64,000 nt of DNA from the NCBI GenBank assembly GCA_016292635.1, contig JAEDIC010000008.1, positions 150 to 64,149 of the forward strand. The letters run 5' to 3'. A program made the position numbers and the translations under genes. This document shows, piece by piece, positions 5,539 through 27,683 of this stretch (the first letter of the stretch is position 1; each line of letters opens with the position of its first letter). The notes below the pieces were generated by a model that was given only the letters and a program-made list of their open reading frames with translations, was not told the DNA's origin and made no database searches. Source of the DNA: Clostridia bacterium. Lineage in GTDB: Bacteria > Bacillota > Clostridia > Christensenellales > CAG-138.

Positions 5539-5574
5539 AAAAAAGAACACTACCGCATCCTTGCGATAATGTCC
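5539..5574 (-). terminator. Probable intrinsic terminator after the YlmH-like gene
   Basis: On the minus strand, GGACATTATCGCA-agga-TGCGGTAGTGTTC (imperfect, 10/13 pairs) followed by TTTTTT. Confidence 0.45.
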
Positions 5575-5591
5575 TTATTTTTAAACTATCT

Positions 5592-6338
5592 TCAATATAC
5601 CCGTACTCTTACCCTTAGGCGTCCCTTCTTGGTCTCTCGTTCAATCCCCTCATAAGCAAACCTGCCCTTGCCCCGCACTGAAACAAGGGCGCCGGGGGCG
5701 AGGGAAGCGGAAGGGTTCTGGGTAAGGCGGCTGTTTATGAACACACGGCCCTGCTGTATTAGCTCCTTGCCGCCGTTGCGGGAAAGGAGGTATACGGCGG
5801 ATATGATCGCATCCAGCCTTTCCGATGCTACCACCACGGAGGTTATGGGCGGGGGTTCAAGGAGGAATTCGGGCGGTTCTGACAGAGAGCATCGCACCGT
5901 TGTGCGCTTTACCTCGCCAAGGCCGTCAATAATATAAGAAGCGATGGAGTCGAGGCAGAACAGATATCCCACATTGTCCGCAATGAGTATATCGCCCATT
6001 ACCTCCCGGCGAACGCCGAGACCCATCAACGCACCGAGGAAATCCCTGTGGTTTAGCTTATCCGCAAACTTTTGCGATGCGGGGGCGATTTTTATGCATA
6101 CTACGGGGGAGATATAGGGACAGCCGCACATATCTTCGCTGCCGAATGCCGCAACCTTTCGCTCTCCGTCAGGATATCCGGCATGGAGGGAAAAGGGCGC
6201 GGCAAGGCGCAGGGCGCATAGGATATCCTGCTCCGCAAGGGTGAGGAATTCCGTATCCGTCCAGAAGCCCTGCCTGTCCGCGCGCTCCGCAAGCTCGCTT
6301 AGGCGGTTTATCAGCTGTTGTCTTTCAGCGTCTGCCAT
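5592..6338 (-). CDS. YlmH-like RNA-binding protein with C-terminal S4 domain (248 aa)
   Basis: Full ORF. The length and layout match YlmH-type proteins. The C-terminal S4-like segment is ERLDAIISAVYLLSRNGGKELIQQGRVFINSRL. The start ATG at 6338 lies 28 nt inside the upstream gene, indicating translational coupling. Confidence 0.75.
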   Translation of the reverse strand: MADAERQQLINRLSELAERADRQGFWTDTEFLTLAEQDILCALRLAAPFSLHAGYPDGERKVAAFGSEDMCGCPYISPVVCIKIAPASQKFADKLNHRDFLGALMGLGVRREVMGDILIADNVGYLFCLDSIASYIIDGLGEVKRTTVRCSLSEPPEFLLEPPPITSVVVASERLDAIISAVYLLSRNGGKELIQQGRVFINSRLTQNPSASLAPGALVSVRGKGRFAYEGIERETKKGRLRVRVRVY

Positions 6339-8914
6339 ATGCTGTATGTCCCTCTGTTTTCTTTACGCATGGCTTCCATAAGCTCATTGAGCTCTCCGCA
6401 GGCTCTGTCCACCTCCTCACGGAAGGCCCGGGCGGGTACTCTGAGGGCGCCGCGGCCCAGCACGATAAGCTGCTCAAGTCCGTCCGACGTTGCCACCCGA
6501 ACGAGACCGGTTTCTTTTTTCAGCTGTTCTGTTACCCGCTCGATGTATACATCGGCTATTTCCGCCTCTCGGGTGTATACGATGTATATGCCGCCGCTTT
6601 TTTCAACCTTTTCTTCGCCGCTGCTTACCTTATATGCATCGAATACCAGAATAAGGTTGCATTTTTTAAAGCCCTGATAGTTTACCAACAGCCTTATCAG
6701 GGTTTCGCGGGCAAGGGATATGCTTTCCCGTGCCATGGCTCTGAGGTCATCCCATGCGAAGATGATATTGTATCCATCCACAAGGAGATAGCTTTCCGCA
6801 GGGTCCATACGCTTGAGCATGGCGGCGGTGTCCATGGTCTGCTCCGGTCGTCTTCTCAGCAGAAATGTTCTGTCCTTTACAGGGCCGTAGGTGCGTTCAT
6901 ATATTGCCATAAGCTCCGCATCGGTATCGCCTGTTTTTTTTGAAGGAGCGGGCCGGGGGTCAGAGGCCTCCTGCCGCTCAAGGTGGGGGATAAGCTCATT
7001 CCACTTTACCACGAAGCCTGCCCCATGGCTGCAGAATACCGAATCGGGAGAATTTTCCGTATCTGTCTCTGGGTCGTAGCCAAGCCTTGCTATAACTTCC
7101 TCCGCATTATGGCAGGGGCGGTAACCGCCGGGAGAAAGGGAAAACCTTCCCAGTCCACGGGTGTATGCCGCAACCTCGCGGGCGTAGTCTCCCATTGCGG
7201 AAACGGGTGCGCTGCCTGTAAGCAGGGCAAAGCCGCCGGAAGAGGCGGGCGGGTCGGTTTCGCCCTCCATGCGGCGTATGTCGGTTATGGCTCTGCCAAG
7301 GTTTTCCTGCGGCAGTTCAAGGCGAAATTCGTAATATGGTTCCAGCAGCAGGGACTTTGCCTGCATAAGACCCTGACGAACGGCCCGGTATGTGGCCTGA
7401 CGGAAGTCGCCGCCCTCGGTGTGCTTAAGGTGGGCCTTGCCGTTAAGGAGGGTTATGCGTATATCCGTTATGGGAGAGCAGGTGAGCACGCCACGGTGCT
7501 GTTTTTCCTGCAGGTGTGTAAGTATGAGCCGCTGCCAGTTTCTGTCCAATACATCCTCGCTGCAGGCGGTGTCGAATACAAGGCCGCTGCCACGGGGCAA
7601 AGGTTCCAGCAGCAGCTGAACATGGGCAAAGTGCTTCAGCGGTTCGTAATGGCCTATGCCCTCTACTGTATCAGCGATGGTTTCTTTATATAATATTGTG
7701 CCCTGTCCGAAGGAAACATCCAGTCCGAATCTATCCTTTATTATGGATTGCAACACCTCCCGCTGAACGTCTCCCATGAGCCGGGCCTGCATCTCCCTGC
7801 GCTGTTCGTCCCATAAAAGATGCAGCTGCGGATCTTCTTCCTGAAGTTTTTTCAGCTTTTGATAAGCATCCGGCAGGTTGGTATCAGCGGGGAACAGAAG
7901 GCGATAGGACAGCACAGGTTCAAGCGCGGAGGGGCTGTCATCCATTTCAAAGCCCAGTCCCTGCCCGGGATATGTGCGGCTGAGGCCGCATACGGCGCAT
8001 ATCATGCCGGATTCGGCGGTTTGCGCGGGGACGAATTTTGCCCCGGAGTATATCCGTATCTGGTCCGCCTTTTCTTCCCAAAGATTATCATTCCTGGTGG
8101 TGGCGGTGCGGTTGGTTATTACGTCTTTTACGGACAGGCTGCCGCCGGTTATCTTCATCCATGTGAGCCGGTTGCTGCCGTCGTAGGTTATCTTGAATAC
8201 CCTTGCGCCAAAATCCTCAGGGTAGCTGCGGCAGCGGGTAAAGCGCTCTATGGCCCGCAGGAAAGCTTCAACACCGTCAAGCTTCAGGGCGGCGCCAAAG
8301 AATACCGGGAAGATATGGCGGGAGAGTATTCCCCCGGCAAGCTGGTCATCCGACAGGCTTCCATTCTCAAGAAAGGCTTCCATAAGGGATTCGGAACACA
8401 TTGCGGCAGACTCATAAAGCTCTTCGGAATCGGTAAAGTCCACACAACCTTCGTGCAGCTGTTCCCGCAGGGTGAAGATCATCTCGGACTTGTCCGGCCC
8501 CGGCAGGTCGGTTTTGTTTACGAATATGAAAACCGGCACTCCGTGGCGCTCAAGAAGCTGCCAAAGGGTGCGGGTATGGGCCTGAATGCCGCCGCTTATT
8601 ACAAGTATTGCATAATCCAGCACTTGAAGGGTTCGCTCGGTTTCGGCGGAAAAGTCAACGTGTCCCGGGGTATCCAGCAGGGTGATGCGGGTATTGCCAA
8701 GCTCCATTATTGCCTGCTTGGAAAATATGGTGATGCCTCGCTCCTTTTCAAGGCAGTGGGTATCCAAAAAGGCGCTTTGATGATCCACCCGTCCAAGGCT
8801 GCGCAAAGCCCCGGCGGTATATAACATACCCTCGGACAAAGTGGTCTTGCCGGCATCCACGTGGGCCAGCATGCCTATTGTGAGAAAATTTGTTGTGCAG
8901 ACGCTACGATTCAT
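6311..8914 (-). CDS. Translational GTPase (EF-G/TetM-like, domains G-II-III-IV-V) fused to a C-terminal YacP/Rae1-type NYN nuclease domain (867 aa)
   Basis: G motifs are present: AHVDAGKTT, RGITI, DTPGHVDF, NKTD, GAALK. Domain II-V-like segments are colinear with EF-G/TetM over about 640 aa. A linker of about 65 aa follows, then the NYN domain. It is a single uninterrupted ORF. Confidence 0.85.
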   Translation of the reverse strand: MNRSVCTTNFLTIGMLAHVDAGKTTLSEGMLYTAGALRSLGRVDHQSAFLDTHCLEKERGITIFSKQAIMELGNTRITLLDTPGHVDFSAETERTLQVLDYAILVISGGIQAHTRTLWQLLERHGVPVFIFVNKTDLPGPDKSEMIFTLREQLHEGCVDFTDSEELYESAAMCSESLMEAFLENGSLSDDQLAGGILSRHIFPVFFGAALKLDGVEAFLRAIERFTRCRSYPEDFGARVFKITYDGSNRLTWMKITGGSLSVKDVITNRTATTRNDNLWEEKADQIRIYSGAKFVPAQTAESGMICAVCGLSRTYPGQGLGFEMDDSPSALEPVLSYRLLFPADTNLPDAYQKLKKLQEEDPQLHLLWDEQRREMQARLMGDVQREVLQSIIKDRFGLDVSFGQGTILYKETIADTVEGIGHYEPLKHFAHVQLLLEPLPRGSGLVFDTACSEDVLDRNWQRLILTHLQEKQHRGVLTCSPITDIRITLLNGKAHLKHTEGGDFRQATYRAVRQGLMQAKSLLLEPYYEFRLELPQENLGRAITDIRRMEGETDPPASSGGFALLTGSAPVSAMGDYAREVAAYTRGLGRFSLSPGGYRPCHNAEEVIARLGYDPETDTENSPDSVFCSHGAGFVVKWNELIPHLERQEASDPRPAPSKKTGDTDAELMAIYERTYGPVKDRTFLLRRRPEQTMDTAAMLKRMDPAESYLLVDGYNIIFAWDDLRAMARESISLARETLIRLLVNYQGFKKCNLILVFDAYKVSSGEEKVEKSGGIYIVYTREAEIADVYIERVTEQLKKETGLVRVATSDGLEQLIVLGRGALRVPARAFREEVDRACGELNELMEAMRKENRGTYSIWQTLKDNS
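6314..6790 (-). other. NYN (YacP/Rae1-like) nuclease domain-encoding part of the GTPase fusion (residues ~709-867)
   Basis: YLLVDGYNIIFAWDD..., NLILVFDAYKV..., VRVATSDGLEQLIV. The three acidic motifs typical of YacP-type NYN domains are all present. Confidence 0.7.
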
Positions 8915-8920
8915 GATACA

Positions 8921-8949
8921 ATTATAGCATACATCATATCTTTGATAAA
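8921..8949 (-). promoter_or_regulatory. Possible extended -10 promoter giving a leaderless mRNA for the GTPase-NYN gene
   Basis: On the minus strand, TTTATC (8949-8944), 17 nt, TGcTATAAT (8929-8921). Only 6 nt (TGTATC) separate the -10 from the ATG at 8914. No Shine-Dalgarno sequence is present. Confidence 0.3.
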
Positions 8950-18392: not shown

Positions 18393-19097
18393 ATGAGCAT
18401 AGTGGAAAACTACAGCCGTGTAATGGAAAATATAGCGCAATCCTGCGCAAAGGCCGGGAGAAGGCCGGATGAGGTAAAACTCATTGCCGTTACCAAGTAT
18501 GTGGATACTGAGCGCATTGCCGAGGCCGTGGCCGCCGGGGCGAGAAGCGTTGGGGAAAACCGGGTGCAGGAGTTTCGGGACAAGCAGGAGTTTTTCAAAA
18601 ACCATGGGCTGGATGTTCATTTAATTGGACAATTACAGACAAATAAGGTAAAATATATTATTGGAAGTGACGCTCTTATCCAGTCTCTGGACAGGATAGA
18701 GCTTGCAAAGGAGATAAGCCGTATAGCTTCAGCAAGGGATGTTATACAAAACGCCCTTGTTGAGGTAAATATCGGCGGCGAGGCCCAAAAGGGCGGCATT
18801 GCCCCGGAAGGGCTGATGCCATTTCTTGAGATAGTTTCCGCTTTGCCCAATATACGCATTAAGGGGCTTATGTGCGTTCCTCCGGCTGTGGGACAGGAGG
18901 GCGCAAGGGTCTATTTTGCGGCTATGCGGCGGCTTTTTGAGGATATCCGCAGTATGGATATACCAAACGTGGATATGCTGGAGCTGTCCATGGGCATGAG
19001 CGGGGATTATAGATCCGCCATACTGGAAGGCGCTACTATGGTTCGAGTGGGAACGGCTATATTCGGCGCACGTCCGGTGGCGGTGGCAGGGGCGTAG
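18393..19097 (+). CDS. yggS: YggS/YlmE family pyridoxal-phosphate homeostasis protein (234 aa)
   Basis: Contains LIAVTKY (PLP lysine), GENRVQE and HLIGQLQTNKVKY, which are classic YggS motifs. Confidence 0.9.
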   Translation: MSIVENYSRVMENIAQSCAKAGRRPDEVKLIAVTKYVDTERIAEAVAAGARSVGENRVQEFRDKQEFFKNHGLDVHLIGQLQTNKVKYIIGSDALIQSLDRIELAKEISRIASARDVIQNALVEVNIGGEAQKGGIAPEGLMPFLEIVSALPNIRIKGLMCVPPAVGQEGARVYFAAMRRLFEDIRSMDIPNVDMLELSMGMSGDYRSAILEGATMVRVGTAIFGARPVAVAGA

Positions 19098-19186
19098 ACA
19101 GATATAGACCCCGCCTTAAAATGATTGTTTTTCTCCAAGCGCCAATTAAAAAACAGAATTTTTAATTGAAACGGAGGAAACACAGA

Positions 19187-19645
19187 ATGGCAGGATTGCT
19201 CAACAAGCTTATGGATTTCATCGGCATTGAGGATGCTGAAATGGACGACGTTTACGAAGAGGACTACTTTGCGGACGATCGTACCGTAGCCGAGGACAAC
19301 GTACTGAACCTGGGCAACAGGGGCAGGAAAAAGTCCGCTGCCGCAGGCAGCAGCAATGTGGTCAGCCTTCCCACGGCCGCCCCTATGAAGATGATGGTCT
19401 ATCGTCCCGTCAGCTATGAGGACACCCAGAACATCATCGACAACCTGAAGAGCCGCAAGCCCGTGATCGTAAACATGGAGGAACTTGAGATCGACTGCGC
19501 TCAGCGCATACTGGATTTCATGGCCGGCGCGATCTACGCTCTGGACGGCACTATTTACAAAATCTCCCGCGGTATCTTTGTCGTAGCTCCCACCAACTAT
19601 GACGTGATCGGCAACGACGGCTACACCGATGTTGACGTGATCTGA
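19187..19645 (+). CDS. sepF: Cell division protein SepF (152 aa)
   Basis: ORF 19166..19645 trimmed to the ATG at 19187 (GGAGGAAA RBS). N-terminal amphipathic MAGLLNKLMDFIG. C-terminal SepF core: PVIVNMEELEIDCAQRILDFMAGAIYALDGTIYKIS. Confidence 0.9.
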   Translation: MAGLLNKLMDFIGIEDAEMDDVYEEDYFADDRTVAEDNVLNLGNRGRKKSAAAGSSNVVSLPTAAPMKMMVYRPVSYEDTQNIIDNLKSRKPVIVNMEELEIDCAQRILDFMAGAIYALDGTIYKISRGIFVVAPTNYDVIGNDGYTDVDVI

Positions 19646-19723: not shown

Positions 19724-19930
19724 ATGAAGATAAGCGATATAGCAAACCGAAAATTCAGCCGGGCTTTTCAGGGCTATAATATCAGCGAGGTGGATGCCTT
19801 CCTTGATGATATTGCCCGGGAGATGGAGCGCCGAGAGCAGGATATGAAGCTGCTGGAACTGCGCAATGAGATGCTGATAGAGCGCCTTGCCGCAATCGGC
19901 GTTTCACTTGGTATGGAAAAAAGCGAATAA
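19724..19930 (+). CDS. Short DivIVA-domain protein (68 aa, N-terminal lipid-binding domain plus a short coiled coil)
   Basis: MKISDIANRKFSRAFQGYNISEVDAFLDDIAREME matches the DivIVA/GpsB N-terminal domain pattern. Located after sepF, as in ylm clusters. Confidence 0.8.
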   Translation: MKISDIANRKFSRAFQGYNISEVDAFLDDIAREMERREQDMKLLELRNEMLIERLAAIGVSLGMEKSE

Positions 19931-19976: not shown

Positions 19977-20039
19977 TATGCTATTTTTTCCTGCTGCGAT
20001 CCATACTAACGGCATATGCAAAAAAACAGGGAGGCATTT

Positions 20040-23000
20040 ATGCTGCCAAACAGGACGTATAACGGATTGACTGACAGGGCCTGCAGAACGGATGAACTTA
20101 AGGAAGAAGCAAGGCTTAGGGCGGAGCTTTCGGTGAAGGGGAGAAGGCGCTGTTCGCTGCAGCTGGGAGCGGACAGACGTTTGCTCATCGCCGCATACAA
20201 AAAGGCAAGGGAAACACAGGCATCCGGGGCGCTGGAGGCTCTTCAGCGGGATTTTCACATAGTTGAACAGGCGCTGCTCGGTCTTGATGAGGAGGAGCAG
20301 AGGCGGCTTCCCGTGCTCATCCATGGCAGCCATGCGGGCCTACCAAGGGTGTATGACATAGCCGCGTGCATCGTGGGAGGTCGTGACGGCAGGGTGGACG
20401 AGGGGGCGATCAGCCGCTTCCTTGATGCGTATCAAAGCGTTGCTCCTCTTACAATGGCGGAGACAGGCGCTCTCAGGGATATGCTGAATGCGGCGCTGAT
20501 AAAGCTGCTCAGCGTGGAATGCGGCAGGGCGATGGACAGTCTGAAGGCGGAGGAGGCCGCCGGTGCGGCGGTGGATCAGCTTATGAAGCAGCGTACCAAA
20601 GACAGGCGGCGGTCCATACTGGAAAAGTTGGATTTGGGGGAAAATCCCGCTCTTGTGGAGCGGCTGTATACCTTGCTGTCCGAGCGGGATATGGGCGATG
20701 CGATTGATGGGCTTACGGAAAGGCTGTATCTGGAGGATCAGGATATTGAGGAGCTTTGCGCTCGGGCAAGGAGCGAAAGGGCTCGGGGAACCCAAAGGAC
20801 GGAAAACGCAATACACAGCCTTAGGATAATAAACTCCATGGACTGGGAAACCGCATTTGAGCAATACAGCTATACCCATCGGGAACTGAGCAAAGACGAT
20901 ACCTATATGCGGATGGACGCCCGCAGCCGGGGGTATTACAGAGCCTGTGTGGAGCGGCTTTCCGCACGGCTTGGCGGGGCGGAAACTGTGATAGCCCGTC
21001 AGGCGGTGCAGCTTGCCTCGGCCAAAGAGGGCAATGAGGGGGAAGCGGGCTGGTATCTTTTCCTGGATGGCAGGGAGCAGCTGTATGCCGCCCTTCGCCC
21101 GGATAAACGATTCAAAAGACCGGCGGAGGGCAAGACCCTACGGGCATTTGTGACAATAGAGGTTATATTTGCGCTGCTGCTCATATGGCTGGCCGCAACG
21201 GACGGCATAGCGCCGCTGGTGCTGGCCCTGCTGCCCGCATGGAGCATAGCGGGGCTTTTTACCGTGCGGCTTTTTATGAGCAGGGCCCCTGTGCGCTATA
21301 TACCGAGGCTTAAGGAAACTGAGCTGAGTTCTGAACGCACCCTTGTGGTGATACCTGCGCTGATAACCGATGAAAAGGCTCTGCGCACAGTAATGTCTCA
21401 GATAGAGAGGCATATGCTTTCCACCAGGCTGGACAGCTGCTTTTATGCTGTCCTTGGGGATTTTCCGGACGCGGAGGAGCCGAGGCTAAAGGGTGAGAAG
21501 GAGCTATTGAAGCTGGCAGAGAGCCTTACCGCCCGTTTAAACGCAAAATATCCATTCCAAATTCCCCGCTTTTACTATCTGCACAGGCATCGCGAGCTTA
21601 ACAGGGCGGACGGCATATACATGGGCAGGGAGCGCAAACGGGGAGCGGTATGCGATTTAGTTACGCTTATTTCAGAGGGCAATCGGACGCCCTTCTGCAC
21701 CATTACCCATGCCCTGCCGGAGAGTATACGGTATTGCCTTACTCTGGACGGGGATACCGTTTTGCCGCCCGGAGCGGGTGCGGCGCTTATAGGCTGCATG
21801 GAGCATCCCCTGAATAAACCCGAGGTGATAAACGGGACGGTAAGGAAGGGATACGGTCTCATCTCTCCACATATGGCATCTTCGCCGAGGGGGGCCGCAA
21901 AAAGCCCCTTTGCCAGGCTTGTTTCCGGCGAGCCGGGCATAGATGGTTACTTTCCCACGGCTGTGGAGTTTTATCAGGATGTGTTCGGTTCGGGCCTTTT
22001 CGGGGGGAAGGGTATATTTGACGTGGCGGCATTCAGGGATACCGTTATGGAGTGGATACCCGACAACACCGTGCTGAGCCACGATATGCTAGAAGGATGC
22101 TTTCTCCATTGCGGTTATGCGGGAGACATCACCCTCTTTGACAGCGAGCCATCCACGTTTATAGCATGGTGGAAGCGGCAGCATAGGTGGATGCGGGGAG
22201 ACTGGCAGCTGCTGCCTTTTTTGCGTGACAGCGTAAGGGATGCCAAGGGGGTAAGGCGGGAAAACCCCCTTACCATGCTTGCACGAAGGAAAATACTGGA
22301 TAACCTGCGCCGCTCAATGCTGCCATGGGGACTTATGTATACTGCTCTGCTGATACCATATACGGGCTTCGGGTGGCATTTTCTCCTTGCGCTGCTGGCA
22401 TTGTGGGATGGATTTGGTTTTGACCTGCTGACGCTGCCTTATCGTATGCTGACCGCAAGAAACGCCGACCCGGCCGGTATGATAAGGGATCTTCAGCGTC
22501 CCGCCAAGAGGGCGCTGCTGGATATAGTTACGCTGCCTTATGCCGCAAATCGATGCAGCAGTGCGAGAAACCGCAGCCTGTACAGGATATTTGTATCCCA
22601 TACCAAAATGCTGGAATGGCAGACTGCCGCTCAAGTATCCGGCAGGCCGGAGGGCATAAACGGCTACTACGGCGCACTGTACTTCAACCCGGCTGTGGGC
22701 ATAATCATGGCGGCGGGAGCAATACTGGGCAAGACGCCGCTGTTTGCCTCCACATTGGCGGTGCTGTGGATAGGTATGCCGCTGCTCATATGGGCGCTGG
22801 ACGCTCCGTATCCCAAGTACACAGCATCTGAGGATGAGCGGGAGACTCTGCTGACTATAGCCCGGGGCACTTGGGAGTTTTTTCAAAGCTTCTGCAAGGA
22901 AAGCAGCAATTATCTGCCGCCTGATAACTTTCAGCAGCATCCCCATCGCCGCCCCGCGCTGAACACATCCCCAACCAACATAGGCATGGCTGTCATGGCG

Positions 23001-26000
23001 GCGCTGTCCGCAATGGAGCTTGGCATTATTGACAGGGCGGAAGCCGCAATGCGCATAGAACGGACCGCGGAGACCATTGAGCGCATGGAAAAATGGCACG
23101 GACATCTTTATAACTGGTATCGTACGGATACCCTTGCCGTGCTGCCTCCAAGGTATGTTTCCACGGTGGACAGCGGCAACCTTGCAGCTTCATTGCTTAC
23201 AGCGGGTCAGGCCATGGAGGAGGCGGGAGAAACCTTGCTTTCCAAGCGGCTTTTTGCCCTTGCCCGAGGCATGGATTTTACTCAGCTGTATGACGGGGGG
23301 CGAAAGCTTTTCCACATCGGTTACGATGGGGACAGATGCGAACTGTCCTCATCGTGGTATGACCTGCTGGCCTCGGAAGCCCGGCTTACCAGCCTTGTGG
23401 CCATCGCCATGGGACAGGTGGATCATACGCACTGGTTCAGCCTTGGCAGACTTATGGCGCCGGTATGCGGCAGAAGTCTCGTATCATGGAGCGGCACAAT
23501 GTTTGAATACCTTATGCCGCTTATATTCACGGGGGCGGTACCGGGCACGCTGATACATGAAAGCTGCGACAGTGCCATACGGGCTCAGAAAAAATACTCA
23601 GGCGGGCAACTGTGGGGCATATCAGAATCCGGTTATTATGCCTTTGACAGAAATATGTATTATCAATACCGTGCCTTTGGCATACAGCGGCTCAGCCTTA
23701 TGGGTCTGCGGGAAGAGCGGGTCATATCACCTTATTCCACCCTGCTCGCGCTGCCCCTTGCCCCACGGGCGGCAATGGAAAACCTTGGTCAGCTCACCTC
23801 TCTTGGTATGCTGGGCCTGTATGGAATGTATGAGGCGGTGGACTATACCGAAAGCCGTGTACCCGAAGGCAGAAAATATGCCATGGTAAAAAGCTATATG
23901 GCACACCATCAGGGAATGGGTATATGTTCTATTGCAAACGCTTTGCTGGACGGCGTGCTTAGCGAATACTTCTGGCGGGTGCCGGAGCTTGGGGCGGTGC
24001 GGATACTCAGCGAGGAGCGTATACCATCATACGGCATTGCTGTAAAAAACCTGCATTCTTCCGAGGGGAGGGTCAGAAAAGCCAAAACACACAGAGAATA
24101 CAAACCGCGCCGCAGCATGGGGACGCTGGAAGTGCCGGAAGGCCAGCTCCTTTCAAACGGCAGCTATACCCTGTTTATCACGGATAACGGACTGGGATTT
24201 TCAAAGAAGGGGAATGTGATGCTTACCCGCTGGAGGCCGGATCACCTAAGGGGAGACGGGGGCATACATATACTCATTCGCTGCGACGGCGAAACATTTG
24301 ACGCTGCAAAGGACGCGGAGGCCGCGTTTTTGCCCTCCAAGGCGGAGTTTTTTCGCAGGGCGGGGGATATTGCCGCCAAGCTTGAGATTTGCGTATCCGC
24401 AAGGCAGGATGGTGAGATGCGCAGGCTCACCATTACAAATCACGGCGATGATGCAAAAACAGTATCGGTGGGCAGTTTTTTTGAGCCGTGTCTTTGTTCG
24501 TGGGCGGAGGATGCGGCCCACCCCGGCTTTAACAGGCTTACCATAGACGCAAGGCTGTGCCGGGATATGCTGATATTTGAAAAGCGCCCTAAATGGGGCG
24601 AGCAGGGAGAATATCTATACACAAAGCTCATATCCCCGGCGGATGTAGCTTACCTTTCGGACAGGCTAAAGGCACAGGGCAGGGCAAAAACTCTGGAGCA
24701 GGCCATGGCTCAGCCTGTGCGGGAGGAGGAGGTTTCATCTCCCGTGCTGCCATATGCCGCTGCCCGTACGGAGTTCGTCCTTGAGCCGGGGGAAGGGCAG
24801 GAGCTTTGGCTGCTTATGGGGCACGCAGAAAGCGCCGACAGGGCGGCTGAGGACTGCGAGGAGATGGAAAACGACCTTGGGGAGTGCTTTGCCCTTGCCG
24901 ATGCCCAGACAGACGGTATGCTTGCCATGACGGGAACGGAGCGGGGCAAGGCGGAGCTGTTTGAGCGGATAGCCGCCCGGCTGTTGCTCGCATTGCCCCA
25001 AAAGGACGGAGGCGGACAGGGCGGCGGCCTTGGGACGCTGTGGAAGCACGGCATATCCGGCGACAGGCCGGTGGTGCTGATAAAGGTCAGCCGGGTAACC
25101 GGGCTTAGGCTGCTTAAGTCCCTGGGCGAGTTCGCAGGCTATATGGAGCAGCGGCTGTGTCCCGTGGATGTGGCGGCTGTGGGCGATTACCCTGCGGAAT
25201 ACCGAAATGAGCTTAGGGAGAGGATGGAGGCCATGGAGGGCATACGCCTTATCCACGGCTACGATTTGGCGGAGGGTGAATATGAGGCCCTGCGTTCTGC
25301 AGCCCATCTTGAGGTAGATCCTGCCGTAAGCCTTAACAGGCAGTTTGCGCCAAAGCCCGTCAAAGACGGGGAATACCGCAATTACAGCGAAGAAAACCAC
25401 CCGCCTCTCAATATAGAGAAGCCGGAGCTTGAAATGGATAACGGCTGGGGCGGTTTTGGCAGTGGCGGTGAGTATGTGATAACCCTTGAACCGGGAAGAA
25501 GCACCCCCATGCCATGGAGCAACGTGATAGCCAACGACTGTTTTGGCGCCATAATTACCGAGAGGGGCGGCGGATATACATGGCATGAGAACAGCCGGGA
25601 AAACAAGCTGACCCCATGGTATGATTCCCCTGTGGATGACCCTCAGGGGGAATTCATACTGCTGACGGATACGGAAAGCGGGGAGACATTCTCGCCCTTT
25701 GCAGGGGCGCTGCAAAGGGGAAGGGTAATTGTGGAGCACGGCTACGGATACAGCCGCTTTACCACGGGGGACTGCGCTTTAAACACTCGGCTTACTGTGT
25801 TCGTCCACCGGGATAAGCCCGTAAAGTACAGCCATATCACAATAAAGAACCCGGGCGAGGGCAGGCGCACCCTCAGCATAATGTACGGGGTGGAATGGTG
25901 CCTTGGGGATATATCCCGTCCGGAGGCGGTATATACCCACGTGGAAAGCGGCTGCATATTTGCCCGAAACTGCCGCAGGGAGCGGCAGGAGCATGAGGCC

Positions 26001-27683
26001 TATATCGCATCCTCGGCTCAATGCGAGGCCTGTTCGGACAGAAATGCTATACTGCGGGCGGGCTGGGATGCAGAGGAACTGCCAAACACTCATGGAACGG
26101 GCCGGGCTGCGTCAGCACTGCGCACGGTTATTCATATTGAGCCGGGGGAGGAGAAGGATATAGTATTCTTCCTTGGGGAGGACACACAAGAGGGAGCGGC
26201 GGTGGCCATGGAGACGGATGTTCGTGAGGAGCTGAACCGTGTAAAGGAACTTTGGCGGCAGCGGCTGGACGGAATAACGATACGCACGCCAAACCCCGCC
26301 ATGGACAGGATGATGAACGGGCGGCTGCTGTATCAGGTTTGGGCTGCAAGGCTGCTGGGCCGGTGCGGATACTATCAAAGCGGCGGGGCGTATGGATTCC
26401 GCGATCAGCTTCAGGATGTGATGTCGTTGCTGCATCATGAGCCGGAAAGGTCAAGACAGCATATACTTCTTTGCGCATCAAAGCAGTTTAAGGATGGAGA
26501 TGTGCTTCACTGGTGGCACAGCCCCAGCCGTGGTGTGCGTACCCGTATAGCGGATGACAGGCTGTTTCTGCCATACGTTGCGGAGGAATACGTGGAGGTC
26601 ACCGGGGACGCGTCAATACTCAGAGAAATGGTATCCTATCTGGCCCACAGGCCCATCCCCGAAGGATATCGGGATCTGTATGATGAGATGCGGGACAGCA
26701 GGGAAAAGGAAAGCCTGTATATGCATTGCGTAAGGGCGGTTGACAGCGTGCATACGGGCTATCACGGTCTGCCCATTATGGGAGGCGGAGACTGGAACGA
26801 CGGTATGGATATGGTCGGAGCGAACGGCGGAGAAAGCGTATGGCTGGGCTGGTTTATGATTGATGTGCTGGAGCGGATGGAGCGCATGGCAAACAGGATG
26901 AACAGAAAAGCCGATGCAAGGCGCTTTGTATTCCGCCGGGAAAGGCTAAAAGCCAATCTGGAGCGTGCATGGGACGGAGCGTGGTATCGCAGGGCATATT
27001 ATGGGGACGGAACGCCTCTCGGTTCACGGGAAAACTCCATGTGCGAAATAGACTGCATATCTCAGGCCTGGGCTGCCGTAGCGGGCGGAGAAAGGGCAAA
27101 TGAGGCCATGGATTCCTTGCTCACCATGCTTTATGATGAGCAGGAGGGCATAGTAAAGCTGCTGACACCGCCCTTCCAGCCTTCGGAGCAGTCTCCGGGA
27201 TACATCCAGGCATATATCCCCGGCGTAAGGGAAAACGGAGGGCAGTATACCCACGGGGCTGTGTGGGCTGTGAAGGGCCTTTGTAAACTTGGCAGGGGAG
27301 ATGAGGCCCTAAGGCTGTTTGATGCCCTCAATCCCATAAACCATACCCTGACCCATGCACAGGTCACAAAATACAAAACAGAGCCTTACGCCGTGGCGGG
27401 GGACGTATATTCGGGGCTGAACGCCGGGCGGGGCGGCTGGACATGGTATACCGGCGCTGCGGGCTGGATGTACAATGTATGCCTTGAGGATATGCTGGGG
27501 ATAAGGCGGCGGGGAAACGTGCTGGAGATAGCGCCAACTGTGCCCTTTGAGAGCTTTTCCGTGGAATACCGCTGGGGCAATAGCCGGTATATACTGAACC
27601 TTCGGGGCAAAAGCCGGGGGAGAGTGGTATTGTCAGATGATGGCCTTACCCATGAAATCACCATGGAGCCTCTGGGGGATTGA
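20040..27683 (+). CDS. Cyclic beta-1,2-glucan synthase-like multidomain giant (GT84-like glycosyltransferase + TM segments + alpha-helical glucanase/cyclization-like region + C-terminal GH94 phosphorylase-like domain; 2547 aa)
   Basis: Single 7.6-kb ORF. AGGGAGG (20028-20034) favours the ATG at 20040 over the ATG at 20016. GT-A motifs: CLTLDGDTVLPP (DxD) and QHRWMRGDWQ (QxxRW). Three or more clusters of TM helices. The C-terminal ~850 aa are colinear with cellobiose/chitobiose-phosphorylase-type (GH94) domains, as in Cgs/NdvB/ChvB. Confidence 0.85.
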   Translation: MLPNRTYNGLTDRACRTDELKEEARLRAELSVKGRRRCSLQLGADRRLLIAAYKKARETQASGALEALQRDFHIVEQALLGLDEEEQRRLPVLIHGSHAGLPRVYDIAACIVGGRDGRVDEGAISRFLDAYQSVAPLTMAETGALRDMLNAALIKLLSVECGRAMDSLKAEEAAGAAVDQLMKQRTKDRRRSILEKLDLGENPALVERLYTLLSERDMGDAIDGLTERLYLEDQDIEELCARARSERARGTQRTENAIHSLRIINSMDWETAFEQYSYTHRELSKDDTYMRMDARSRGYYRACVERLSARLGGAETVIARQAVQLASAKEGNEGEAGWYLFLDGREQLYAALRPDKRFKRPAEGKTLRAFVTIEVIFALLLIWLAATDGIAPLVLALLPAWSIAGLFTVRLFMSRAPVRYIPRLKETELSSERTLVVIPALITDEKALRTVMSQIERHMLSTRLDSCFYAVLGDFPDAEEPRLKGEKELLKLAESLTARLNAKYPFQIPRFYYLHRHRELNRADGIYMGRERKRGAVCDLVTLISEGNRTPFCTITHALPESIRYCLTLDGDTVLPPGAGAALIGCMEHPLNKPEVINGTVRKGYGLISPHMASSPRGAAKSPFARLVSGEPGIDGYFPTAVEFYQDVFGSGLFGGKGIFDVAAFRDTVMEWIPDNTVLSHDMLEGCFLHCGYAGDITLFDSEPSTFIAWWKRQHRWMRGDWQLLPFLRDSVRDAKGVRRENPLTMLARRKILDNLRRSMLPWGLMYTALLIPYTGFGWHFLLALLALWDGFGFDLLTLPYRMLTARNADPAGMIRDLQRPAKRALLDIVTLPYAANRCSSARNRSLYRIFVSHTKMLEWQTAAQVSGRPEGINGYYGALYFNPAVGIIMAAGAILGKTPLFASTLAVLWIGMPLLIWALDAPYPKYTASEDERETLLTIARGTWEFFQSFCKESSNYLPPDNFQQHPHRRPALNTSPTNIGMAVMAALSAMELGIIDRAEAAMRIERTAETIERMEKWHGHLYNWYRTDTLAVLPPRYVSTVDSGNLAASLLTAGQAMEEAGETLLSKRLFALARGMDFTQLYDGGRKLFHIGYDGDRCELSSSWYDLLASEARLTSLVAIAMGQVDHTHWFSLGRLMAPVCGRSLVSWSGTMFEYLMPLIFTGAVPGTLIHESCDSAIRAQKKYSGGQLWGISESGYYAFDRNMYYQYRAFGIQRLSLMGLREERVISPYSTLLALPLAPRAAMENLGQLTSLGMLGLYGMYEAVDYTESRVPEGRKYAMVKSYMAHHQGMGICSIANALLDGVLSEYFWRVPELGAVRILSEERIPSYGIAVKNLHSSEGRVRKAKTHREYKPRRSMGTLEVPEGQLLSNGSYTLFITDNGLGFSKKGNVMLTRWRPDHLRGDGGIHILIRCDGETFDAAKDAEAAFLPSKAEFFRRAGDIAAKLEICVSARQDGEMRRLTITNHGDDAKTVSVGSFFEPCLCSWAEDAAHPGFNRLTIDARLCRDMLIFEKRPKWGEQGEYLYTKLISPADVAYLSDRLKAQGRAKTLEQAMAQPVREEEVSSPVLPYAAARTEFVLEPGEGQELWLLMGHAESADRAAEDCEEMENDLGECFALADAQTDGMLAMTGTERGKAELFERIAARLLLALPQKDGGGQGGGLGTLWKHGISGDRPVVLIKVSRVTGLRLLKSLGEFAGYMEQRLCPVDVAAVGDYPAEYRNELRERMEAMEGIRLIHGYDLAEGEYEALRSAAHLEVDPAVSLNRQFAPKPVKDGEYRNYSEENHPPLNIEKPELEMDNGWGGFGSGGEYVITLEPGRSTPMPWSNVIANDCFGAIITERGGGYTWHENSRENKLTPWYDSPVDDPQGEFILLTDTESGETFSPFAGALQRGRVIVEHGYGYSRFTTGDCALNTRLTVFVHRDKPVKYSHITIKNPGEGRRTLSIMYGVEWCLGDISRPEAVYTHVESGCIFARNCRRERQEHEAYIASSAQCEACSDRNAILRAGWDAEELPNTHGTGRAASALRTVIHIEPGEEKDIVFFLGEDTQEGAAVAMETDVREELNRVKELWRQRLDGITIRTPNPAMDRMMNGRLLYQVWAARLLGRCGYYQSGGAYGFRDQLQDVMSLLHHEPERSRQHILLCASKQFKDGDVLHWWHSPSRGVRTRIADDRLFLPYVAEEYVEVTGDASILREMVSYLAHRPIPEGYRDLYDEMRDSREKESLYMHCVRAVDSVHTGYHGLPIMGGGDWNDGMDMVGANGGESVWLGWFMIDVLERMERMANRMNRKADARRFVFRRERLKANLERAWDGAWYRRAYYGDGTPLGSRENSMCEIDCISQAWAAVAGGERANEAMDSLLTMLYDEQEGIVKLLTPPFQPSEQSPGYIQAYIPGVRENGGQYTHGAVWAVKGLCKLGRGDEALRLFDALNPINHTLTHAQVTKYKTEPYAVAGDVYSGLNAGRGGWTWYTGAAGWMYNVCLEDMLGIRRRGNVLEIAPTVPFESFSVEYRWGNSRYILNLRGKSRGRVVLSDDGLTHEITMEPLGD

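Follow-up and report, generated by a model that had tools for sequence, protein, structure and literature searches.

Here we analysed a 64,000-nucleotide (nt) stretch of the genome of a Clostridia bacterium (Christensenellales, CAG-138; GenBank assembly GCA_016292635.1, contig JAEDIC010000008.1, positions 150 to 64,149; the whole stretch is called the window below) and found that one of its genes encodes a single protein of 867 amino acids (aa) in which a translational GTPase (trGTPase), resembling both tetracycline ribosomal protection (Tet) proteins and elongation factor G (EF-G), is joined through a tether to a nuclease domain of the NYN_YacP (Rae1) type. The fusion has intact catalytic motifs in both parts, an architecture conserved across its family and, in one subclade, a place in a two-gene operon with a ylmH-like gene. 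By analogy with its characterised relatives, the protein may be a GTPase-guided, tethered endonuclease working on ribosomes that have stalled or collided, a reading to which we assign a probability of roughly 50%; delivery of the nuclease to stalled ribosomes by elongation-factor mimicry is plausible. The gene is a member of a catalogued, uncharacterised family, sharing both architecture and taxonomic group with the TetM-like/NYN_YacP fusions of Clostridia that were recorded, with their function left open, by Atkinson 2015 (BMC Genomics, PMC4342817) and Matelska 2017 (NAR, PMC5499597). Those papers reported the fusion in 'ten species' or 'some Clostridia' and discussed tetracycline resistance, with ylmH unmentioned; the first-pass annotation of this DNA, made from the sequence alone, was wrong to regard the fusion as undescribed.

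The open reading frame (ORF) list of the window gives 6311..8914(-) as one open frame of 867 aa, in agreement with the earlier claim of a single uninterrupted protein. The 120 closest homologs in the database are all fused in the same way, the most distant at 56% identity, and the fusion is therefore not a sequencing artefact. The motifs quoted previously were all found in the translation at confirmed positions, namely AHVDAGKTT (17-25), RGITI (59-63), DTPGHVDF (81-88), NKTD (133-136) and GAALK (207-211) in the GTPase, and LLVDGYN (710-716), LVFDAY (756-761) and ATSDG (808-812) in the nuclease. The domain borders were checked by a Pfam profile search of the protein, which returned the GTPase domains in order, followed by NYN_YacP (Table 1). 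The C-terminal ~160 aa, read at first pass as a YacP-type NYN domain, scored well above the cutoff and aligned to the B. subtilis YacP/Rae1 structures 5MQ8/5MQ9 (E = 2e-22), with D713, D759, D788 and D811 matching Rae1 D7, D53, D81 and D104, respectively. These four Asp residues are invariant in family alignments A1 and A2, and the family-defining GYN motif (714-716), directly after D713, is present in 275 of 277 members. A GYN directly after the first catalytic Asp (Matelska 2017, PMC5499597) and at least four active-site Asp residues are traits of NYN_YacP proteins. The PIN-superfamily classification and the alignment to 5MQ8/5MQ9 mark the four residues as putatively catalytic.

The N-terminal part agrees with the EF-G/EF2 branch of trGTPases, carrying G1 (AHVDAGKT), G2 (RGITI), G3 (DTPGH, with catalytic His85), G4 (NKTD) and G5 (GAALK), all with motif residues invariant in A1 and A2, ahead of domains II-V in order. 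An AlphaFold2 (AF2) model of the 867-aa protein, built on 46 family members (mean predicted local distance difference test score, pLDDT, 81.8), has an EF-G-like five-domain body, a tether modelled at low confidence and a NYN domain modelled at high confidence, and in a Foldseek search it is closest to structures of EF-G on the ribosome (E ~1e-52). A gap between body and nuclease does exist, as had been noted, but the span from domain V to the NYN domain is really about 105 aa rather than a linker of ~65 aa; in the AF2 model it consists of a structured extension (604-650) and a flexible tether of roughly 55-60 aa. The hairpin motif PDSVFCSHGAGFVVKW of this extension is present in 270 of 277 full-length members. 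Across 220 members the distance from hairpin to NYN domain is 84-215 aa (median 99), and the tether length in the family is about 55-130 aa. Within this otherwise variable, low-confidence tether sits a short conserved motif, ELxAIFERTYGPVK, in which L668, I671, T675, Y676 and G677 are invariant in family alignments A1, A2 and A3. A regular expression for it matches 225 of 277 members and is specific enough to pull family members from metagenomes; neither stand-alone Rae1 nor the unfused GTPase relative described below has the motif, which might serve in docking or auto-inhibition.

The NCBI names for proteins >90% identical to the fusion are 'NYN domain-containing protein' or 'TetM/TetW/TetO/TetS family tetracycline resistance ribosomal protection protein', and the mislabelling that the first-pass annotation predicted is thus real. 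Taken at face value, the latter name would make the fusion a tetracycline-type ribosomal protection protein whose RNase domain adds a new resistance mechanism, a possibility raised by Atkinson 2015 (PMC4342817). Among NCBIfam models the protein matches tet_protect NF012153 best (E = 2e-108), and among PDB sequences TetM (218 bits). It shares the short G' insertion of TetM, to which it aligns in one colinear stretch, whereas the EF-G alignment falls into two around the missing G' segment. However, the NF012153 score (363 bits) is less than half of its 775-bit cutoff, the specific Tet models fall far below theirs (NF033148, 229 vs 1100; NF000120, 273 vs 900), EF-G matches overall as well as TetM does (217 bits), and domain IV alone favours EF-G (46 bits) over TetM (34 bits). 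The segment YYSPV (506-510) of TetM domain IV loop III, including Pro509, which we take to be the residues that dislodge tetracycline, aligns to A494-H-L-K-H498 of the fusion, with K497 opposite Pro509. The resistance reading is further opposed by the chromosomal housekeeping setting of the window, by carriage on only two huge non-mobilizable 'plasmid' records and no verified phage, and by a broad, apparently vertical spread in Clostridia. A bona fide tetracycline protection protein was rejected given the scores below all Tet cutoffs, the lack of conservation of TetM loop III and the chromosomal context; we consider the resistance reading hardly probable, and the tetracycline-resistance label is probably wrong.

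The EF-G equivalog model was also failed (TIGR00484, 249 bits vs a cutoff of 659.4). The EF-G/TetM-like domain order stated earlier is upheld by Pfam. With Tet(M)/Tet(O) the fusion shares the five-domain layout, the short G', colinearity and a C-terminal extension past domain V; unlike them, it lies under every curated cutoff, has a changed loop III and an EF-G-like tip His, adds a tether and nuclease, and is not borne on mobile elements. With EF-G it has in common the overall fold, the GTPase motifs and the His at the tip of domain IV, whereas it lacks the full G' subdomain and has the added nuclease. H495 of the tip loop aligns with T. thermophilus EF-G His573, and GKAHLKHTEGGDFR of this loop is invariant in A1 and A2, with the family signature present in 252 of 277 full-length members; the loop itself reads KHTEGGDFR in the fusion versus HEVDSSEMAF in EF-G. 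We also found an unfused 648-aa trGTPase in Neobacillus cucumis (NZ_PGVE01000017.1; locus L011, 5144-7090) that is 42% identical to the fusion, carries the tip KHTSGGDFR and the same C-terminal hairpin, and ends exactly at the tether start. The nuclease was therefore added onto a pre-existing, distinct Tet-like/EF-G-like subfamily, and the comparison points to an apparently uncharacterised subfamily of Bacilli to which the nuclease was joined in Clostridia.

To survey the family, residues 600-867 (linker plus NYN) were searched against 1.84 billion cluster representatives, and at least 343 clusters (50% identity) matched at E <= 1e-30, the top 150 representatives being mostly proteins of 830-1150 aa or fragments of such. 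DTPGH occurs in 275 of the 277 full-length members, as does the first NYN Asp motif, and the motifs of Asp2-4 occur in 271-274; since the GTPase and NYN motifs are both near-invariant, both activities are under joint selection. Apparent 'split' versions starting at the linker boundary (P0252, P0257, P0295, P0309) look like truncated gene calls and were not used, nor were P0359 (414 aa) and P0333 (214 aa), whose linker-plus-NYN part continues into an RNase R-like C-terminus and a DnaJ-like zinc-finger segment, respectively, and which are probably assembly or frameshift chimeras. Loci were collected from reference genomes with a full-length alignment, which returned mostly EF-G (fusions in 12 of 80 loci), and from metagenomes with a C-terminal-only alignment, which was specific for the fusion. 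Carriers include Oscillospiraceae, Lachnospiraceae (Blautia, Acetatifactor, Pseudobutyrivibrio, Agathobacter rectalis), Monoglobus, Flavonifractor and Christensenellales-type metagenome-assembled genomes, with Agathobacter rectalis and Monoglobus pectinilyticus among the cultured human-gut carriers.

Plasmid carriage was rejected, as the sole 'plasmid' matches are non-mobilizable replicons of 252 kb and 518 kb with housekeeping neighbours. These records encode methionyl aminopeptidase, SSB and CotJ, and may be chromosome pieces or chromids. The fusion also occurs on two unverified faecal 'Bacteriophage sp.' records (MT835563.1, L178; MT835514.1), which are probably bacterial DNA; on MT835563.1 there are genes for NAD(P)HX dehydratase, LysR and citrate transport, phage hallmark genes being absent, and phage carriage was likewise rejected. 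Relative to the catalogued descriptions, our analysis adds a larger family, the failure of the Tet criteria, the tether motif, the domain IV tip, the unfused sister and the subclade ylmH operon. In the searchable literature we found no paper that characterises the fusion, ties it to current knowledge of Rae1 or mentions ylmH, and none giving the family size, the Tet-criteria failure, the EF-G-like tip, the tether motif, the unfused sister or the ylmH operon.

Downstream of the fusion lies a gene for a 248-aa protein, earlier described as YlmH-like with an S4 domain, whose family membership is upheld by matches to Pfam YlmH_RBD (PF17774, residues 88-151, E = 7.7e-13, 49 bits, cutoff 23) and S4 (PF01479, residues 173-217, 25.2 bits, cutoff 22.8) and by alignment of residues 26-244 to B. 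subtilis YlmH in its 50S complex (PDB 8S1P, E = 7e-20). It aligns over its full length to TIGR03069 at 94 bits, under the equivalog cutoff of 201.55. A set of 120 homologs has lengths of 244-257 aa, and NCBI labels >90%-identical proteins 'YlmH/Sll1252 family protein'. The protein has the same three-domain layout as B. subtilis YlmH (8S1P/8S1U), but the B. subtilis gene belongs to the ylm operon downstream of the dcw cluster, whereas the window gene overlaps the fusion gene; the 28-nt overlap reported at first pass was recovered, positions 6311-6338 being common to both frames. A consensus scan found promoter-like (8921..8948) and terminator-like (5543..5576) sites that bracket exactly these two genes, and in the window lineage the fusion and ylmH are probably co-transcribed and translationally coupled. 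The -10 box ends 6 nt before the fusion ATG at 8914, no Shine-Dalgarno-like motif is visible upstream of this ATG, and the mRNA may be leaderless; the relative P0014 is annotated with a start 14 aa farther upstream. An Rfam scan of the window gave no match, and therefore no leader or riboswitch for the operon. Two antisense ORFs within the fusion gene, 6983-7693(+) of 236 aa and 7820-8824(+) of 334 aa, were taken to be shadow ORFs arising from GC-rich coding sequence. In B. subtilis, YlmH is a factor of ribosome-associated quality control (RQC) that binds 50S-peptidyl-tRNA complexes and helps RqcH-mediated alanine tailing on obstructed 50S subunits (PMC11317155); this role is documented for the B. 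subtilis protein, and a similar one for the window YlmH would be by analogy.

We then asked how general this arrangement is by grouping 103 fusion loci into 35 clusters (80% identity over the C-terminal 260 residues), 32 of them assessable. A ylmH gene adjoins the fusion in 3 of the 32, downstream in two sister clusters and upstream in one independent cluster, so that the operon inferred at first pass is conserved in one subclade and is not a general property of the family. The pair occurs in L081 (81% identity, same flanks as the window), in L082-L086 (64-66% identity, different flanks, with rubredoxin-oxidoreductase on one side and SpoIVA/Der on the other) and in L096, with gene overlaps of 28-31 nt kept in L081-L086. 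Relatives at 56-58% identity lack the pair and have lspA, TrmO or nothing on the same strand downstream. In the independent case, L012 (Lachnospiraceae AC2029), ylmH lies directly upstream of the fusion with a 3-nt gap. A TrmO gene, a further neighbour related to translation, is immediately downstream in two fusion clusters and not general across the family; in L090/L091 (Flavonifractor-type contigs, 6131-6820) this TrmO-family tRNA methyltransferase gene overlaps the fusion 3' end by 4 nt.

The YlmH orthologs of related genomes (54-63% identity) lie in varied contexts, outside dcw/ylm clusters and not beside the fusion, and the identity of adjacent to non-adjacent copies falls continuously from 100% to 54%; the window ylmH is therefore the ordinary ortholog of its lineage. 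The cluster at 18.4-19.9 kb does lack ylmH, as had been observed, and comprises YggS/YlmE (18393-19097), SepF (19166-19645) and a DivIVA-like ORF (19724-19930), with no ylmG or ylmH between sepF and that ORF. This absence is no evidence of recruitment, and the proposal that ylmH was recruited from the ylm cluster is weak given the dispersed orthologs. These observations also suit the explanation that the ylmH link has no specific functional meaning, a dispersed ylmH having landed beside the fusion in one Christensenellales-type subclade and been kept by inertia, in which case the fusion would work independently of YlmH: most assessable clusters lack the adjacency, ylmH moves among many contexts, and the fusion-adjacent copy is no divergent paralog. 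Set against this, the overlapping frames persist through 64-100% identity despite changed flanking genes, a second, independent adjacency with reversed gene order exists in L012, and both protein families are documented to act at stalled ribosomes. If a genome is assumed to hold about 3000 genes, a rough Poisson calculation gives roughly 2e-4 for two independent adjacencies among some 32 lineages; together with the overlapping frames kept across changed flanks, this exceeds chance. We place the no-meaning explanation somewhat short of an even chance.

Factors of the EF-G type dock at the GTPase-associated centre of the ribosome, and their domain IV enters the decoding site. Under the proposal of a tethered endonuclease for stalled or collided ribosomes, for which we infer ribosome binding, RNA target, cut site, the role of GTP and cooperation with YlmH, the five-domain body in its GTP form would bind the ribosomal factor-binding site, and its domain IV would extend to the decoding region, as that of EF-G does. 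Docking would keep the tethered nuclease beside ribosome-bound RNA, which to judge from stand-alone Rae1 is most probably the mRNA of a ribosome that has stalled or collided, and the factor would be released upon GTP hydrolysis. Collided trailing ribosomes would be natural substrates for an EF-G-type factor, and in the window lineage the co-expressed YlmH would tie mRNA cleavage to downstream RQC. Rae1 is a translation-dependent endonuclease that cuts 12 nt upstream of the stalling codon and acts with transfer-messenger RNA (tmRNA), whose rescue pathway it feeds, on collided ribosomes (PMC12407103, PMC13622287), and the A-site action assumed for it in the first-pass annotation is dated by these same reports. 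This proposal is favoured by the intact motifs, the 120 of 120 fused homologs, the invariant EF-G-like tip and the ribosome-bound EF-G structural matches, together with the roles of Rae1 and YlmH at stalled ribosomes, the kept overlapping pair and the bracketing promoter- and terminator-like sites.

Several points weigh on the other side. The ylmH adjacency is missing in 29 of 32 assessable clusters and the commonest neighbour is an lspA-like gene (5 clusters), and genomic context therefore gives a rescue role little general support. The unfused L011 sister means that the body may own another function, which need not be stall sensing. In the AF2 model the placement of the domains relative to one another is uncertain (predicted template modelling score, pTM, 0.63), the target RNA cannot be read from sequence, and NYN_YacP was first predicted to serve rRNA/tRNA maturation (PMC5499597).

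This last prediction leads to an explanation in which the NYN domain acts on rRNA or tRNA and the protein is a biogenesis, maturation or ribosome-turnover factor, its EF-G-like body docking on subunits or 70S ribosomes so that the nuclease trims or inactivates ribosomal RNA. Several trGTPase paralogs, BipA and LepA among them, are active in ribosome assembly, and the unfused sister trGTPase and the two clusters with TrmO directly downstream fit such a role. The NYN_YacP prediction itself came from the cysS-mrnC-yacO-yacP operon (PMC5499597; Atkinson 2015, PMC4342817). However, Rae1, the sole characterised NYN_YacP enzyme, cuts mRNA in a way that depends on translation, rRNA-processing genes are not recurrent among the neighbours, and the ylmH coupling points to rescue or RQC and not to biogenesis; we hold this explanation to be unlikely.

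A stress- or phage-triggered shut-off toxin, in which the GTPase gates global destruction of ribosome-bound RNA and leads to growth arrest or abortive infection instead of saving single ribosomes, has its precedent in ribosome-dependent mRNA interferases such as RelE. A BrnT/CopG toxin-antitoxin pair adjoins the gene in Agathobacter rectalis, directly upstream on the opposite strand (NZ_CP143948.1; L177, 2444-2952), and neighbours with helix-turn-helix domains were reported by Matelska 2017 (PMC5499597) and also seen in L001. But a PADLOC search of the fusion and YlmH-like proteins matched no defence model, the window operon has no antitoxin-like small gene, the 'phage' contig carrying the fusion has no phage genes, and the gene is widely conserved, single-copy-looking and found in varied housekeeping contexts; we regard a toxin as very improbable.

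Rae1/YacP shares with the fusion a homologous nuclease with GYN and four Asp residues and a presumed ribosome-bound RNA substrate, but Rae1 stands alone, has about 170 aa and reaches the ribosome unaided, whereas the fusion nuclease is tethered to a 650-aa GTPase from which ribosome targeting and timing would come; its cut site may differ from the Rae1 position 12 nt upstream of the stalling codon. In its proposed design the fusion resembles the NTPase-plus-nuclease collision sensors MutS2/RqcU (ATPase plus SMR) and E. coli SmrB, which likewise combine a ribosome-recognising module with an endonuclease-fold domain for stalled or collided ribosomes and have RQC (RqcH with RqcP or YlmH) acting downstream. 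The folds are unrelated to those of MutS2/RqcU (trGTPase and NYN versus ABC-like ATPase and SMR), and B. subtilis MutS2 does not cleave mRNA. A more elaborate version is possible though doubtful: the fusion might be a GTP-gated stall or collision sensor that cuts the mRNA of translocation-blocked or vacant-A-site ribosomes, with the tether motif as a docking or auto-inhibitory element and, in the Christensenellales-type lineage, a hard-wired link to YlmH, which would together form a compact, undescribed 'no-go decay plus RQC' module.

The features of the two-gene operon are collected in Table 1. The rest of the window is ordinary chromosome, with genes for a major facilitator superfamily transporter, a TRAP transporter, PNPase, YggS, SepF, UvrB, UvrA, a penicillin-binding protein and glycogen phosphorylase, and no mobile-element genes were found in it. 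The 68-aa ORF at 19724-19930(+) resembles the N-terminal DivIVA domain by eye (MKISDIANRKFSRAFQGYNISEVDAFLDDI...) and is far shorter than canonical DivIVA. Directly after the YggS-SepF-DivIVA-like genes, ORF 20016-27683(+) encodes 2555 aa with GH94 catalytic, supersandwich and glucoamylase-like domains, presumably resembling a cyclic beta-1,2-glucan synthase or phosphorylase.

Table 1 Features of the fusion gene and its ylmH-like partner, with positions in the window
Feature	Position	Strand	Description and basis
Promoter-like element	8921..8948	-	TTATCA, 16-nt spacer, TG-extended TATAAT; consensus scan, 10/12 matches; consensus match only
Fusion gene	6311..8914	-	867-aa Tet/EF-G-like translational GTPase plus NYN_YacP nuclease; ORF list, Pfam, homologs, AF2 model
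G domain, residues 10-225	8240..8887	-	Pfam GTP_EFTU, E 1.9e-43
Domain II, residues 236-313	7976..8209	-	Pfam EF-G_D2, weak match; beta-barrel in AF2 model
Domain III, residues 344-403	7706..7885	-	Pfam EFG_III, 26 bits; AF2 model
Domain IV, residues 406-520	7355..7699	-	Pfam EFG_IV, E 3.9e-19
Domain IV tip loop, G492-KAHLKHTEGGDFR-505	7400..7441	-	Family signature KH[TS]xGxDFR
Domain V, residues 523-603	7106..7348	-	Pfam EFG_C, E 1.7e-16
Structured C-terminal extension, residues 604-650	6965..7105	-	Helix, beta-hairpin PDSVFCSHGAGFVVKW, helix; AF2, pLDDT about 80
Flexible tether, residues 651-709	6788..6964	-	pLDDT <50 for 652-664 and 679-692
Short conserved tether motif, E667-LMAIYERTYGPVK-680	6875..6916	-	Family consensus ELxAIFERTYGPVK
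NYN_YacP (Rae1-type) nuclease domain, residues 710-854	6353..6787	-	Pfam E 4e-44, 151 bits vs cutoff 24.6
Overlap of fusion 3' end and ylmH start, 28 nt	6311..6338	-	GAGGG 11 nt upstream of ylmH ATG
YlmH-family gene, 248 aa	5592..6338	-	N-terminal domain, YlmH_RBD, C-terminal S4
Terminator-like hairpin and T-run	5543..5576	-	15-bp stem, then TTTTATATAT; 16 nt past the ylmH-like stop; consensus match only

How Rae1-type nucleases engage the ribosome is currently debated, with A-site entry set against cleavage upstream of stalled or collided ribosomes, and a natural, widespread fusion of such a nuclease to an EF-G-like body is a built-in answer for one lineage, which predicts docking at the factor-binding site. 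The fusion thereby offers a structural and genetic handle on this question, and the GTPase body, as a large rigid handle, should make cryo-electron microscopy of a nuclease-ribosome complex tractable. The family is carried by abundant human-gut Clostridia and routinely annotated as tetracycline resistance, which inflates metagenomic resistome counts. Finally, the lineage-specific ylmH operon provides a testable hint that endonucleolytic cleavage and RQC may be coordinated in these bacteria.

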